A stretch of 64,000 bases of DNA, taken from assembly GCA_036785375.1 (NCBI GenBank), contig JAWMAR010000075.1:7006001-7070000 (forward strand), read 5' to 3'. The DNA comes from Leucoraja ocellata. Its lineage: Eukaryota. The notes beneath the pieces are model-generated. The model searched no databases, had not been told where the DNA came from, and worked only from the letters and a program-made list of their open reading frames with translations. The position numbers and the translations under genes were made by a program. Shown here piece after piece: positions 2,525 to 51,199 of this stretch (position 1 is the first letter of the stretch; the number at the start of each line of letters is the position of its first letter).

Positions 2525-3647
2525 TAATTCGAGTTAAATCAAATGTGGAAAACATGTGCAATAGAAGTAGGAGTAGGTAACATGGCCCCTCAAGTCTGTT
2601 CCCATTTGGACTACTTCCATAATCAGATTGGGGCCCATTTCTAAACTGGTGCTTAATTTGCACTGTAACTACAACAGTGGGGTGAAAGTAGGCCTCTCTT
2701 GACCAACATTATAGCTCAAAGTGAATTGAAAACATCCAGACTTGTAATATCCATCAACAATTAGCAAGCTATGACATATGAGTGATATTGAATTAAGACA
2801 TATTGTGATGTTCTGATGTGATCAAGTTTCCTGGTCGGTGTATTTTCTTTGCCTTTTTCAGTTTTGTGAAAAGATTAAAATCAGAACACTAATATGATAA
2901 TGTAGTCCCAGCTGTCTCCTGCAATGGGTCGAATTGGATGTCATTAAAGTGACAGCATGATTGCCTAATTTGATGAGGTGGATTTTCATTGCTTAAGTGC
3001 ATCGTACCTCTTCATGTCAAATGAGTAAATTGCTGGGACAAGGTATTATGTAAAGAGACGCATGTTTTGCTATTACGTATTCTGCTGTGTGTTGTACATA
3101 CTTTATTAGATTTAATAAGAATGCATTATAAGCATATAGAATTGATCAGTAACAGTGGCTCAAGTTGTTAACATTTTTTAGATAATGGTCAGAAAAACTC
3201 CTGAGTGTTGATAAATTATTCCCTCATGCTGAGTGTTTCATTCTGGGTTTTAATCATCAAATGTTTATCTAACACTGAATAAGCTTGCTGTCTTTAAAAA
3301 AAAACCGCATACATCAGAAGGGACAATTTTCTAATCTTGGTGTAATATCATGAGCACGACATATAAACACAAGAGGACCAGTCCATCACTTTTACAAAAC
3401 CGGCATGGCTGAGCAATATCTAATTAAGACTAGACCAATTGCAGACCCGTTGGGTCTGTTCCCCCAACGTGCGGTTGTGGAGGGGGGGGGCAGCATGCAG
3501 CGTCACACACTAACTATCCCCCCCCCCCCCCCCCCCCCACACACGCTAATCACCCCCCTATATATTATATTAATATTATTAATTTGCTCCTTTTACCCCA
3601 TAAGCACCCTATCTACTGATGCATAGCCCCCAACTTGCAGCCACATC

Positions 3648-4020
3648 TAGAGAGGGGGGGGGGGGGGGGGCGGCGGGGGCGGGGTTAGAGAGTGAGGGCA
3701 GAGAGAGAAGGGGCAGAGACAGATATAGAGGCAGAGACCGAGAGAGAGTGGTGAGGGGGTGGAAGGGAGGGTGGGTGAGGGGGGAAAAGGTGGGGGAGGA
3801 GGGGAGAGAGGGGGGGGGGAGGAGAGAGGGGGGGGAGGAGAGAGGGGGGGAGAGAGCGGGGGTGCTGAGTGAGGGGGAGAGAGAGGGGTGCTGATGGGGG
3901 TGAGGGGAGGGGGAGAGGTGGGGAGCAGGGACGGTGGAGGGAAGGGGGTAGGGGGTGTGGAGGGGAGGGTGGGGTAAGGGAGGGGGGAGAAGAGAGGTGG
4001 GAAGAGAGAGGAGGGGAGAC
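3648..4020. repeat. G/A-rich low-complexity tract inside the Helitron
   Basis: Runs of G and GGGA/GAGA; explains the Pro/Gly-rich spurious ORFs. Confidence 0.9.
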
Positions 4021-4114
4021 TTCAACGTTTTACTTCAACCCAAACAACCATTTGCAGGCAGTGCCTTTTTACTTCAAACCAACCATATTCTCATTTTCAA
4101 ACCACATTAAGGTC

Positions 4115-4218
4115 ACTCACAGTTGAGTAGACATGTGTTCAGTGTTATTCAGAGCTCAGAGAGACGTGACCTCCATCTTGCAGAGACTGAGTGAGGCACA
4201 CAATTTCCTGGTTTTATA
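4115..4218 (-). promoter_or_regulatory. Putative Pol II core promoter plus splice donor (Helitron-borne), copy 1
   Basis: TATAAAA 4218-4212; Inr TCAGTC with A at 4188 (TATA at -30); CAAGATGG YY1-like motif; GTGAGT at 4120-4115. Confidence 0.5.
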
Positions 4219-5164
4219 GTCCCTCCCCCTCCCTCCAGCAGGGGCAGCAGAGAGAATGGTGATTGTTTAAAAATCATTAATATCTCTCTGATTTTTCATC
4301 AATGGGGAAAAATCCTCCGGTCCAGGAAGGCAGACGTGGGCTCTGAGCGAGGTGGCCAAATATGACGGCCGTAGGTGGCGGCGTTCTCTCGGAAATCGCA
4401 GCACAGTGGGCCAAAACCGGTCAAGAACAGACTTTTAGTAATATAGATGGAGACCAAATTGTGAAATTTCCACAGTATATACTGTGAATACTGTTTGATA
4501 CGCAATGGATATATCTGTGAGAGTGTAATCCAATTAATCATATTACTGCCTTAAAGTTATATAGATTCTAATTTGAAGATAATTATTCATTGTCTCTCTG
4601 CCAATTAATAGGCAGTGAAGCAACTGTTTTTTGTTCTCCGTACAATGAAACCAGTGACGAAGGAGAAAAGATTTATATTTTTCCTTTTACACTTGAGATC
4701 TATAATTATATTGGACCGAAAGCACTGTTGGTTTAACTGATCTGTGATGGTGCTGCATGCGCCCACAATCTAATTACCTCTCCTCTGTGTCTCGATTACT
4801 CTATTCCATTTTCTCTCATACGAAGCATCACCATAAACACATCAGTAATATCTGGTTCAAATGTTCTGATGTTGCAGCACATTTTCTCCAATTCTCTATC
4901 TACAGGCTGTCTTTGGGTTATGAATGCTTGACTTATGGACACCCCTACATATGAATAAACTCCATAATATTATTAAATTCAAAAGTCCAATGCACACATG
5001 TTGATTTCCATGAATGATAGAATAAGTTCTCACTCCGTGTCTCCAATTCTCTCTTAACAGTCTTCTGTGCTTTAGATGCCATTCATTACAGTACTGTGGA
5101 AGTATGGTTCCCATATCATAATTTCCTGTCCTTTTTAACTTAATAACAAAATCACCATATTCAA

Positions 5165-28772: not shown

Positions 28773-30874
28773 CGGAAGTAAACACCTCATTTCCAAGGAT
28801 GATGGGAATCATAAAGACATTTATTTTTTATGCAGGATATAAAGTGAATATATCAAAAACTCAAACCCTCCTGTTTAATTGTGCTCCTCCAGAAGAAATC
28901 AAGCAAAATTATCATATTCAATGGTATTCAAAATCAATTAATACCCAGGGGTACATATAACAAAAATTATATCAATGTTGTATGGGGCCAATTATAATCA
29001 CATCAACCAAAACATAAGAAAGGATATAGAAAGATGGTCCACCTACCCAATGGATTTTAGTAGTAAGATAAATGTGATGAAAATTAATATTTTGCCAAGG
29101 CAATTGTACTTGTTTCCATCTCTGCCAATAGAGATACCATTAAAACAATTCACGGAATGGGATAAATTAATATCTAGATTCATTTGGGGAGGAAAGAAGG
29201 CCAGAATCCGATACACTACACTCCAGTTGCCAAAGGACAAAGGTGGAATGGCACTTCCAAATTTTAGGATATATTTCTATGCAGCCCAACCTCGACTACT
29301 AATTAATTTGTGTGAGGACAGCTATATAGCTAGGTGGAAAGAGATTGAGACATGTACCCCTGACTTCCACATCCAAACACTCTTGGGAGAAAAAACATTT
29401 CCTGGACATATCAGGAGTATAATCGATCCAATTACGATATTTACTTTAAAAACCTGGTTCACTCTTACCAGCCAACCTAAACTGAATACACGACAAAGGG
29501 TTTGAGATGGATAGCTTTGGATAATTAATTTAAACCAGGGATGTATGATTCAACATTTAAAGAGTGGATGAAGAAAAGAATGACTGCATTTTGTACTGTT
29601 ACTGAAAATGGAGACCTAAGAAGTTTTCAAGATTTGAAGGATAGATTTGCACTTTTGAACCAAGACTTGTCCAGATACCTCCAACTGAGTGATTATTACA
29701 ATAAAAAAGTAAAAAGGGAGGCACTAGAAGAAAATAATCCAGTGATAGAAGTGATAGTTAATGCGTATAATCAAAAAACATTAAGGATTATTTCTAAACG
29801 TTATCATAGTTTAATGGAATGTCAAGCTAAAACTCCATTTAATGTAAAATTTAAGTGGGAAAAGGAATTGAACATCACAATCTCAGAAGAAGAATGGCAT
29901 CATATGTGTGTAACATTACAGACATCCACTAAATCACAAAAATGAGAGAATTTAATTGGAAAATTTTGATTTGTTTCTTTATTACGCCTAACATAAAAAG
30001 CAAGCAAATTCTAAGGCAGCAAACATGCTGGAGGCAATGTGGCCAAAGATGCAAATCATGCACATATCTTCTGGAGTTGCCCCAAAATAGAACCATTTTG
30101 GGACAGAGTGAATTCAGAATTAAAGGAGGTATTAGGATATATAGTCTCCAAGAAGTGTTCCATTTTATTCCTGGGAAACATAAATACAGTGGTGCTGAAG
30201 GAAGATCAATATTTGGTTAAAATCCTACTCACAGCTGGCAGAAAGGCCATTATAAGAAACTGGCTTGCAGCAGACACACCCAGACTTAGACAATGGTTAG
30301 TCATAGTACAGGAAATATTTGTCATGTAGAAAATTACATATTCTTTAAGAGTGAAAGAAGACGAGTTTAACAGAAAATGGGAAAAATAGATTAGGTATAG
30401 AAATAAAGACATCAACTGTATAATTTTATTGACAATAATGTAAGTTATTGGAAAATGTTTTAATGAGAAAATAGTTCTGTATACTGCATCATTAATTGTA
30501 AACTGAACCCCCGCTGCACTGTTGTATGTTTCACTGCATTGTTGTATGTTTCACTGCATTGTTGTATGTTTCACTGCACTGTTGTATGTTTCACTGCATT
30601 GTTGTATGTTTCATTGCATTGTTGTATGTTTCATTGCATTGTTGTATGTTTCATTGCATTGTTGTATGTTTCACTGCATTGTTGTATGTTTCATTGCATT
30701 GTTGTATGTTTCATTGCATTGTTGTATGTTTCATTGCATTGTTGTATGTTTCACTGCATTGTTGTATGTTTCACTGCATTGTTGTATGTTTCACTGCATT
30801 GTTGTATGTTTCGTCATCATATTTGTGTTTTATTTGTGTTTGCACAAAAGCAATAAAGACTAAAGTGAAAAAAA
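28773..30874 (+). mobile_element. L1-clade LINE, 5'-truncated (ORF2 C-terminal pseudogene)
   Basis: GYKVNISKT, INILPR..YLF, FIWGGKKARI..PKDKGGMALPNF and CWRQCG..HIFWSCP knuckle. AATAAA (30852) and A-tail; 14 bp TSD AGAAAATAGGTGCA (28759-28772 and 30875-30888). Confidence 0.93.
30514..30812. repeat. 20 bp minisatellite, ~15 copies, in the L1 3' UTR
   Basis: Unit CAYTGCATTGTTGTATGTTT in tandem without spacers. Confidence 0.95.
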
Positions 30875-47009: not shown

Positions 47010-47336
47010 CAATAAATAATGTTAAATTGTGAATTATTTAATGTTCATTCGAGGTGTTGTAACAAATGCATTCTCATTTTATTTATAGTTTCTTTTTCAG
47101 CTTCTATTACTTACCTATATTACTAAAAGTAAGATCTTGACCACTTCCCGCTTTTTTGTTTCATGATTTTTGAAAAAATGCTGCCACTTACGGCTGTGAT
47201 TTTTGGCCATCTTACTCAGTCCCCCTCCACTGCGCAGGACAAGAGGATTTTTCCCATCGATGAAAAATAAAAGAGTTAATAATGTTTAAAAAATGTTGAC
47301 ATTCTCTCTGCTGCCCCTGCTGGTGGGATGGGGGAC

Positions 47337-47451
47337 TATAAAACCAGGAAGTGTTTTGCCTCACTCAGTCGCTGCAAGATGGAGGAAGCGAGAGGGTCAC
47401 GTCTTTCTGAGCTGTGAATAACACTGAACACATGTCTACTCAACTGTGAGT
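47337..47451 (+). promoter_or_regulatory. Putative core promoter plus splice donor, copy 2
   Basis: TATAAAA 47337; CAGGAAGTG ETS-like; TCAGTC with A at 47367; CAAGATGG; GTGAGT 47446. Confidence 0.5.
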
Positions 47452-47460
47452 ACACTTAAT

Positions 47461-48290
47461 ACAAGATACAAGACACATTTATTTGTCACGTACCAATTGG
47501 TACAGTGAAATGTATGGTTGCCATATAGCCATACAAATAAATAATAAAGAGAACAGGACATGATAGGTTTTTTTTAACGCAGACATCCGCACACAGTGGG
47601 ATCAAATTCTCACTGTGAGGGAAGGCTTCAAAAATTCAGTCATCCTCCTCTGTTGTCATCCCGTGGTCGGGAGGGCTCCCAAAACCCCCGCACTCGCTGC
47701 TCTGGGTGGCCTGATGTTCAGGTCCGCTCGCCGGGATGATGGAAGTCTGACGTCAGGATTGGAGGCCTCCTCAGCGGCTTGGACATCTGAGTCGGGCACC
47801 TCCTACCGGAGTCCACGGCTCCCGAAGTCTGCAGGCCGTGCTGGGCGGAGATGCAACACTGGCGGCCCTCGGCAAAGGGCCCCAGGACTCCGCGATGTTG
47901 TTTAGCGCCGGCCACGCTGGAAGCTCTCCCAAACCACAGACCAGCGATTTTGGAGCCGCGGACCAACGCTCCAGAGCGCCAAACGGCGATCCAGGTAGGC
48001 ATAGCCAGCTCCGTGGTGACTCCAGCGCTGCGCCGCCGCTGTTGAAACTCTGGTCCGGTCCCCGGCAGGAAAGGACACGCCAATCCAGGTGGTAGTCCGC
48101 GAGGAGGGGGGCGAGGACGCAACTCGGAAAATAGTCGCGTCCCCGCCAGAAAGCGACTGGGAAACAGTTTCCCCCTTACTCTACTCCCCTCCCCCACATA
48201 GAAAAGTTAAAGATTCCCCAAAATAAACTTTAAAACTGACGGAAAAAAAAAAAAAAGATTTAAAAAACAGACTGTAGGCCGAGGATGCCC
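47461..48290 (-). mobile_element. Non-autonomous retroposon (19663-20317 family) nested in the Helitron
   Basis: Tail ACAAGATACAAGACACATTTATTTGTCAC; interrupts Helitron sequence that is contiguous in the 3430-4447 copy. Confidence 0.7.
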
Positions 48291-48654
48291 TCAATGTGGA
48301 GCCCCTAGTGATTATGTGTCTGAAAATGAAATGTGGTTTGAAAATGAAAATATGGTTGCTTTGAAATGCTGCACTGCAAATGGTTGTTGGTGGTGGTAAC
48401 TGCTTTGAAATGCTGCACTGCAAATGGTTGTTGGACAACTTCCTGTTTGCACTGCATATTTATTTTAGATAAAACGGTACCACTTACGGCTGTGATTTTT
48501 GGCCATCTTACTCCGCCCCCCTCGTTCATCAGGTGCAGAGGATTCTTCCCATCAATGAAAAATAAAAGTGTTATTAGTGTTTAAAAAAATGTTGAAAATC
48601 TTCTGTCAATCATGCCATGAAAGCCACGCCCCTTCCGGTGGGAGGGGGAGGGAT

Positions 48655-48772
48655 TATAAAACCTGGAAGTGTGGGTGTGGCTCAGTTTCTGCAAGATGGG
48701 GGAGGGAGAGATGATTCTGTCTGAGCTGTGATTCAACTGAACACACTGAACTGTGTCTACTGAACTGTGAGT
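48655..48772 (+). promoter_or_regulatory. Putative core promoter plus splice donor, copy 3
   Basis: TATAAAA 48655; CTGGAAGTG; TCAGTT with A at 48684; CAAGATGG; GTGAGT 48767. Confidence 0.45.
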
Positions 48773-48811
48773 TTGGTGTTATGTGGTGTTTTGCGTGGTT
48801 TTATGGTGGTT

Positions 48812-49520
48812 TCACCCTGCTTGAAATGGTATGAAACTGCATTTGAATGTGATGGCCTTGCACCCTGCAAAAAATGGTATGAAACTGCATTTGAATTTGG
48901 TGGCCTTGCACCCTGCATGAAATGGTATGAAACTGCACTTATATTTGGTGGCCTTGCACCCTGCTTGAAGTGGCATGAAACGGCACTTAGAAACATAGAA
49001 ATTAGGTGCAGGAGTAGGCCATTCGGCCCTTCGAGCCTGCACCGCCATTCAATATGATCATGGCTGATCATCCAACTCAGTATCCCGTACCTGCCTTCTC
49101 TCCATACCCTCTGATCCCCTTAGCCACGAGGGCCACATCTAACTCCCTCTTAAATATAGCCAATGAACTGGCCTTGACTACCCTCTGCGGCAGAGAGTTC
49201 CAGAGATTCACCACTCTCTGTTTGAAAAAAGTTCTTCTCATCTTGGTTTTAAAGGATTTCCCCCTTATCCTTATGCTGTGACCCCTTGTCCTGGACTTCC
49301 CCAACATTGGGAGCAATCTTCCTGCATCTAGCCTGTCCAACCCCTTAAGAATTTTGTAAGTTTCTATAAAATTCTTAAGGGGTTGGACAGGCATTTGGTG
49401 GCCTTGCACCCTGCTTGAAATGGCATGAAACTGCACTTGAGTTTGGTGGCCCTGCACCCTGCTTGAAATGGTAGGAAACTTCATTTGAATTTGGTGGCCT
49501 TACACCCTGCTTGAAATGGA
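48812..49520. repeat. ~47-48 bp minisatellite in the Helitron, split by a CR1 insertion
   Basis: Unit CACCCTGCTTGAAATGGTATGAAACTGCATTTGAATTTGGTGGCCTTG; about 4 copies before and 3 after the insert. Confidence 0.9.
48989..49392 (-). mobile_element. CR1/HER1 3' fragment with foldback 5' junction
   Basis: IETYKILKGLDRLDAG..GHSIRIRG; 25 bp inverted repeat at the truncation point. Confidence 0.9.
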
Positions 49521-51199
49521 ATAGCCGCGAGTCAACTGTTCGCCCACCAGCCGTGAGTGAGCTGCCAGCACATCAGGCTTGAGTGACTGAGCTGTCACCC
49601 CAAGAATCCATTTGGCCCACAATGTCCCCCCCCCAACGGGTCCCACTTAGTCTATTATAATTATATGTTTTACTTTTTAAGTTTCTTCCTTTTTCCTGAT
49701 TCAGGTACCTTATTAAATATTAAGGCAAGCTACTGACTTTTATTCAACTACATGCTGAAAGCCAATCATGACTTTGTGAACCCACAATTGCATTATATAT
49801 TTAGAGATCAAATTAACAGCCTCAAGAGTCAGGAGTGTTTATTTGTCACATGCACCAGATATGAACCAGAACAATTCTAATTGCTCCAGCTTTATAAACA
49901 CATTAGGCACAACAACAATAACTATATGGTATATTATCAGTAATTCCAAGTAAACTAACCCATATCAGTGCAAAAACCAAAGTATGCCGAGCAATCATAA
50001 TAGTACAGAGCTTACAATCTTACAATAACAAACTCTTCTCTCCAAGTGGAAGCATTTTTTTTCTGCCTCCACTATATCAAAAGCTTGGAGACATAGAGAA
50101 CTAGTAATGTTATGGGAGCAGCTTCAACAGAGGGACTTCAGCAATTACATTATGCAGCTTTTTCTTAAGTGTTGGAGGTGGGCAATAAACATTGACTTTG
50201 TCAGTGATGCTCCCTTCATATAAATGAACGCACAATTCGAAAAAAAAAACCCCACAAAGGTCTGGAGTAACTCAGCTGATCAGGCATCATCTGTGGAGTG
50301 AATGGATAGGTGAGATTTTGGGTGGGAACCCTTCTTCAGACTCCATCACTAGCCTCCACAGATGCTGCCTGATCCACTGAGTAACTCCAGCACAGCATGT
50401 TTTGCTCAAGACTCCAGCATCTGCGGTTCCTTGGGTGTGTATATATTTAGAAAAATAGATTTTCTATTAGTAACCTATTTAATGCCCAATTTGCCTAGTT
50501 TGTATTTATTCCAACTGAGACAGAAAAATATTAATGCTAAGTAGATGCTGTCCTCCAATTCTTTTCCTGATGATTCACCCTTGTGTTAATTTGCACACAA
50601 AATATTTCCACTTGATTACTTTCCTTTTAGAAGGTTAGGTTCAAATTCTCCCAAACATGCACCAGAAACATCATAAAATATGCTTAGATTTGGTTGGACA
50701 GCAAAACTCGCAAGCAAAATACATTCATTTTCCATCATTCCTTTCGAGATAAAATCATGGAGGACCTTTGGACATTTAAAAAAAAAAAATGATCTTGGAA
50801 ACTATCAATTTATTCACTTAATCTTTAATGGAAAGAGCCTGAAACTAATACACTGGAAGGTAAAGTGGATGAACTTCCCAGCCCATGATGACAGGAAATC
50901 AATTCACAGAGCAATTTATTGTTTTAGTGAAGCTGACTTGTTGAAACTCTGAACGTGGTGCATCAGCATCTTGTTCTTAATTTAGTTAAATAGGAGAAAC
51001 AAATTCAGTCTCAGCATATAATCAATCAAGTAAGCTTAATTTATTCCACTATTTTGTCTTTGCACAAAGACGTTATTTGAACACTGACTTTATCATAGCT
51101 TGTCAGTGCAGTATTTTTTCAGTGCAACAACGTCCTTCCTGGATGAAAAATTACAGAAACCACTCTGCAATTGAATAGTTAATCATTGGCGTTGTTGTT

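Follow-up and report, generated by a model that had tools for sequence, protein, structure and literature searches.

The window analysed here, a 64,000-nt stretch of the Leucoraja ocellata genome (contig JAWMAR010000075.1), carries at 3430..4447 a non-autonomous Helitron of 1018 nt, which lies on the minus strand with its 5' end at 4447 and belongs to a subfamily that we term A. A sequence-only reading of the window had described it as a textbook Helitron containing a ready-made promoter, first exon and splice donor, and its minus-strand sequence, read in that direction (4447 to 3430), confirms the termini A|TC...CTAG|T. A second, composite Helitron with two related cassettes occupies 47114..49655 on the plus strand.

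Structure of the Helitron

The element consists of a 5' terminal region upstream of the TATA box (4219..4447), which is 75–84% like the homologous 5' ends of copies that carry RepHel (over 243–356 nt), a cassette of promoter-like and donor motifs, a pyrimidine-rich low-complexity middle (3650..4020) whose length varies from copy to copy, and a subterminal hairpin (3442..3458), all on the minus strand. The hairpin, read from 3458 to 3442, has a 7-bp stem placed 12 nt from the 3' terminus (−8.9 kcal/mol, z −2.07, 5 of 200 shuffles being as stable), and the 5' 148 nt of the element fold no better than shuffles (z 0.62). Subfamily A is a chimera: its 3' end resembles that of a younger RepHel family (77–90% over 60–100 nt), unlike that of the lineage of the RepHel locus C21, and its 5' end is the one common to the C21/C177 lineage described below.

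The subfamily was represented by 29 copies, after one near-identical duplicate of the window region had been dropped. The A|TC start is found in the window copy and in 23 of the 29, and a recognisable 3' end in 22 (CTAG|T in 18, CTGG|T in two, CTAG|A in two). Target-site duplication is absent, the overlap being at most 2 nt in 15 of the 18 complete copies and 4 nt, within TA-rich flanks, in the other three. The element thus has every feature of a canonical non-autonomous Helitron, namely A|TC, CTRR-3' before T, a 3' palindrome, no target-site duplication and a RepHel relative with related ends. It agrees with Helitrons of the Helibat1/Helraiser type, as far as PMC4778049 describes them, in the 5'-TC, the CTRR-3', the hairpin about 11–12 nt from the end, the A|T target without duplication and the RepHel parent. 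Together with their flanks, the window Helitrons occur again on this contig at a distance of about 215 kb and with 99–100% identity (G000:C75, ~6.795–6.840 Mb; L002, L160, L185), which reflects either a segmental duplication or an assembly duplicate.

Promoter-like and splice-donor motifs

A textbook core promoter has its TATA box about 30 nt upstream of the initiator. In the window element, TATAAAA occupies 4212..4218 and an initiator-like (Inr) word, TCAGTC, occupies 4185..4190 on the minus strand, and the predicted start, the A at 4188, stands 30 nt from the first T of the TATA box, exactly as had been claimed. Equally well placed are CAGGAA (4205..4210, minus strand), between the two words, which we take to be ETS-like, and GTGAGT (4120–4115), 68 nt past the Inr A. 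The latter belongs to a splice-donor motif, ACT|GTGAGT, whose GTGAGT spans 4115..4120 on the minus strand and 3' of which the homology between subfamilies drops. Together, the motifs delimit a predicted non-coding first exon of 68 nt (4121..4188, minus strand), whose status as an exon is suggested by the layout of the parent elements and which holds the YY1-like word CAAGATGG (4180–4173) and a six-codon frame. The YY1-like word is present as reported, but it is not a family-wide trait, being found in only three of five subfamilies (A, B and C).

The spacing of 30, 30 and 29 nt between TATA box and initiator, reported for three units of the window, was reproduced (4218/4188, 47337/47367 and 48655/48684). 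The order of motifs likewise holds in the other two units, although the third, at 48655, varies in its words (CTGGAA and TCAGTT). As had been stated, no frame from the ATG is conserved; the frames run for 6, 12 and 11 codons and each stops before the donor. This TATA–Inr pattern occurs three times in the window against 0.30 expected, and 2 of 100 shuffles reach three; the enrichment is not independent evidence, since the pattern was defined post hoc and its three occurrences are homologous to one another.

The units at 47337 and 48655 were taken in the sequence-only reading for two diverged copies. They proved instead to be tandem units of the composite Helitron at 47114–49655, in which a B-type cassette of TATA box, Inr and donor (47337..47451) is followed by a C-type cassette of the same kind (48655..48772), both on the plus strand; both termini of this element are decayed and it carries insertions. 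The arrangement recurs elsewhere, 22 of 24 B-type copies having a C-type unit after them. Upstream of the unit C TATA box, at 48603..48612 (plus strand), is a perfect DECA (Pbx-Prep) motif in reverse orientation, as this motif is given in PMC6023610. DECA was counted in 18 of 24 C copies and 16 of 25 E copies, in 0 of 29 A copies and in none of the B or D copies. In 15 of the 25 E-type copies (loci L209–L233) it is paired with a nearby CCAAT, whereas the C-type DECA has no CCAAT partner. The E-type copies, with DECA and a nearby CCAAT, thereby resemble the TALE/NF-Y elements described from blastula-stage zebrafish (PMC6023610); the likeness to what is described there is one of motif words, and subfamilies A, B and D lack DECA. 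The E consensus also has an AATAAA soon after its donor.

Family size and conservation of the cassette

Searches of the skate's own genome (3.44 Gb) with five related 5' ends returned 2813, 4366, 5996, 4261 and 4996 first-look candidates, of which the best 40 per search were scored; the candidate sets overlap and these figures are not copy numbers. Among the best 40 of several thousand candidates per search, the top matches are Helitron copies, and the homology of the cassette extends to RepHel parents. The five subfamily consensuses (A–E) are 62–86% alike. TATAAAA is invariant in all five, and each also has the GGA(A/T) core of the ETS-like word and GTGAGT, 3' of which the homology between subfamilies falls away; the TATA-to-Inr distance is 30, 30, 30, 29 and 30 nt, and that from TATA to donor ranges over 92–112 nt. 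Conservation is widespread along the alignment: it is complete in 164 of the 292 ungapped columns, and of the 10 invariant runs eight lie outside the promoter motifs. TATA box, Inr and donor are all intact in 22/29 A, 23/30 D, 14/24 B, 16/24 C and 11/25 E copies.

The mutations within subfamilies were scored in 125 of 132 copies, kept after removal of near-duplicates, the copies being the best BLAST matches. Private mutations fall in the motifs about as often as expected (52 vs 54.9, P 0.37), while variants common to at least three copies are absent from them (0 vs 7.4 expected, P 0.0007). A stricter filter, with gaps, homopolymers and CpG-forming variants taken out, gave 45 private mutations vs 42.1 expected and 0 shared variants vs 3.9 (P 0.03). 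Since shared variants avoid the motifs and private ones accumulate there at the background rate, we infer that the motifs were constrained in the replicating elements and decay neutrally once inserted. The seat of this constraint may be the coding parents or non-coding masters, and the data fit either. In inserted copies the motifs accordingly mutate as fast as the Helitron sequence around them, one of the outcomes that the sequence-only reading had named beforehand as refuting its mobile cassette. Pooled mismatches had suggested a slower decay of the motifs (1.97% vs 2.90%, P 0.001), a result that we set aside, as the split into private and shared variants puts the gap in the shared variants alone. 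That motifs can be constrained in the elements that replicate and yet decay neutrally in the inserted copies cautions against taking conserved motifs in repeats as a sign of host function.

RepHel-bearing relatives

A search for an autonomous RepHel parent had been proposed, and it led to related RepHel loci, such as C21 and C177, though with broken frames. PF14214 matched 120 of the 150 candidates scored from the same genome. C21, one of the first 10 RepHel loci examined, has a 5' end 81% like that of subfamily A over 295 nt, and its layout runs from TATAAAA through AAG|GTGAGT and an intron-like stretch to TTGTCTTTAG|G, with an ATG 17 nt on. From this ATG runs a 241-aa frame, part of which aligns with the intact RepHel found in a young family. 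The locus closest to both A and B is C177 (75% to A over 356 nt, 81% to B), which has the TATA box, TCAGTC and ACG|GTGAGT.

A cassette-type 5' end lies upstream of the transposase on the same strand in 10 of 30 RepHel-region loci, three of the 10 having been fetched because their 5' end had matched; it is missing on that strand from the fetched DNA of the other 20, several of which seem truncated or have more distant 5' ends. In the 10 positive loci, TATAAAA is intact in six, has one substitution in three and is deleted in one, and the donor is kept in eight. The acceptor block was found in 15 of the 30 loci, distant ones included, with AG just before the ATG in 14, and in 0 of the 29 A copies. 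More distant RepHel elements have the first 150–200 nt and the acceptor in common. A tree of RepHel DNA, which took 28 of 32 rows (four had no match of 250 nt), places all seven labelled cassette loci in one clade of 14 rows (support 100/99), and the cassette types track its branches. RepHel frames are broken in all cassette-bearing parents examined.

Within the first intron of the parents there is a second, TATA-less block, with repeated YY1-like and ETS-like words and a donor of its own (L079:7551–7650; L127, in two copies). Such a YY1/ETS-rich block is also present in 28 of 30 D copies, and it could be an alternative start or the real promoter of the parents. One parent-type Helitron contains LTR-retroelement pol frames with reverse transcriptase, RNase H and integrase (L152:3884–8157).

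Intact RepHel frames of up to 1851 aa, 93–99% alike and often in head-to-tail arrays, occur in a young Helitron family (L061/L062, G000:C2153 and related loci). They carry Helitron_like_N and PIF1 (PF14214 and PIF1 were detected), and this family was possibly active recently. It was considered as the parent of the cassette and rejected, its 5' region being unrelated and without homology to the 5' ends studied here.

RNA reads

Four raw RNA runs, of each of which 1–6% was read, were mapped to 4020–4480 at 85% likeness and yielded 822, 798, 1683 and 1999 matching reads on both strands. As most of these are less than 95% alike to the window copy, they report the family in related material, not this copy. 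No pile-up of starts or ends appeared in any of the four runs (ordinary libraries, poor at mapping 5' ends). Read depth shows no increase at the Inr, being greater on its upstream side, and no loose end falls at the donor (4121) among the 24 rows listed (482 further rows exist). The largest loose ends, with 164, 96, 234 and 348 reads, are at the 5' terminus of the element; they have mixed flanks and therefore point to read-through, with copies lying inside longer transcripts. In the single-cell runs, minus-strand depth peaks at 4100–4163, where reads cross the donor unspliced and end in poly(A) at 4094 (64 and 58 reads). The same runs show a large antisense pile of reads at 4340–4451, ending A-rich just beyond the 5' terminus of the element, at either a polyadenylation site or a site of internal priming. 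Genuine ends cannot be told from internal oligo-dT priming for the poly(A) at 4094 or for the A-rich ends beyond the 5' terminus. The flat RNA profile is a lack of support for a promoter, not a disproof of one.

Origin and role of the cassette

The best explanation, to which we give a probability of roughly 0.75, is that the cassette is the RepHel parent's own promoter and non-coding first exon, kept in the short derivatives; its activity is predicted from motifs and layout. The presence of cassette-type 5' ends upstream of RepHel, the acceptors just before the ATG and the cassette types that track the RepHel tree make it likely that the promoter is the parent's own, not a recent capture. Hence, of what the sequence-only reading had offered, both homology and layout speak for a parental RepHel promoter, but a mobile cassette that splices into downstream sequence finds no support in RNA, with neither a start pile-up nor a listed loose end at the donor.

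In the course of events that would extend the observed homology, layout and pattern of motif conservation, Pol II would initiate in the parent some 30 nt past TATAAAA, and an exon of 62–82 nt would be spliced from GTGAGT over a repeat-rich intron to the acceptor 16–17 nt before the RepHel ATG. The RepHel so expressed might then copy in trans any element with these ends. The cassette presumably stayed in short derivatives owing to its position in the first 350 nt from the 5' end; these derivatives would have lost the acceptor and the gene and spread to thousands of places, their motifs now mutating at the background rate, and a minority of copies that landed in permissive surroundings might initiate or splice transcripts. 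There is also a small chance that non-coding lineages keep, and duplicate in tandem, the promoter since being transcribed, or bound by factors, at the 5' end promotes their own copying, older types adding early-embryo TALE/NF-Y sites; in that case, thousands of promoter-plus-donor units would be seeding new start sites and first exons in the genome of a cartilaginous fish.

The nearest precedent is HelibatN3 of Myotis bats, which captured the promoter of NUBPL with six codons and a splice donor and traps exons in cells (PMC4778049, PMC4224331). The elements described here resemble it, according to these accounts, as non-autonomous vertebrate Helitrons with a promoter, short first exon and donor, high copy number and the potential to trap exons; HelibatN3 carries a fragment of a host gene and its splicing was demonstrated, whereas the present cassette corresponds to the RepHel 5' region of the Helitron itself, lacks a conserved frame and is a putative promoter. 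A comparable capture of a host promoter and first exon by an ancestor of the Helitron clade, which may later have come to drive RepHel, seems quite unlikely in our case. A preference of Helitrons for capturing the 5' ends of genes has been reported (PMC4224331, as far as described), 5' regions do get replaced, as in the young RepHel family, whose coding DNA is 80% alike while its 5' region is unrelated, and the CCAAT and DECA motifs of E-type copies (15/25) are typical of host elements. Yet the cassette runs unbroken into the terminal TC and has diverged together with RepHel, it lacks a conserved coding frame, more distant RepHel elements also have the first 150–200 nt and the acceptor, and no host source locus was found among the top matches. 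The HelibatN3 precedent in cells and bats (PMC4778049, as described there) also favours the suggestion that many of the inserted copies work as promoters or exon traps which feed host genes and are kept by the host. The many copies with intact motifs (e.g. 22/29 A, 23/30 D) and the single-cell peak at 4100–4163 agree with it, but that peak passes the donor unspliced to its poly(A) end at 4094, private mutations are not depleted in the motifs, none of the four RNA runs has a start or end pile-up, the loose ends at the 5' terminus look like read-through, and the window yielded no host exon. The donor ACT|GTGAGT, moreover, is weak on its exon side, which counts against exon trapping. We regard such a host role as unlikely.

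The conserved words might also serve transposition, through RepHel binding or melting of the 5' end, with the likeness to a promoter incidental. Upstream blocks that bear no promoter label are conserved as much as the TATA box, and the constraint was seen at the level of replicating elements, both of which would fit. We consider this very unlikely, however, as it leaves unexplained the fixed TATA–Inr distance of 29–30 nt, the donor at the edge of homology and the acceptor just before the ATG; the cleavage determinants of Helraiser, moreover, are placed in the terminal 40 bp (PMC4778049, as far as described), far from the motifs of the cassette.

The parents appear to differ from Helraiser, as far as PMC4778049 describes it, in having an intron-split 5' UTR and a TATA promoter. 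Heli1Xen1 of Xenopus laevis, an autonomous vertebrate Helitron, is similar by description in that a promoter is presumed at its 5' end and its RNA coverage is low (PMC12001565), but that promoter rests on ChIP peaks, and the account contains no core-promoter or splice anatomy in the parts at hand. A literature search at index level turned up nothing that describes this Helitron family or a TATA promoter and first exon belonging to a Helitron itself; Repbase or Dfam may catalogue the family. If the parental reading is correct, a Helitron can spread a promoter-plus-donor unit without capturing a host gene. The layout also provides a concrete, testable map of the likely expression of the transposase in a vertebrate Helitron, from TATA box and initiator through non-coding exon and intron to the acceptor that precedes the ATG. 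Helitrons were already known to disperse promoters and donors, so the surprise is limited.

Other features of the window

A host gene in the window was looked for and rejected: all 216 unmasked open stretches of at least 48 aa (216/216) are without a Pfam match over the cut-off, a screen that short exons would escape. A weak Myb-like match below the cut-off (E 0.003) falls in a 138-aa open stretch at 29529–29942. At 886–2525 there are inverted repeats of about 235 nt, 82% identical and 1.6 kb apart, which probably represent a non-autonomous TIR element. A repeat family of about 95–130 nt occupies some 14 places within 20364–52838, in both orientations, with several members paired as inverted repeats.
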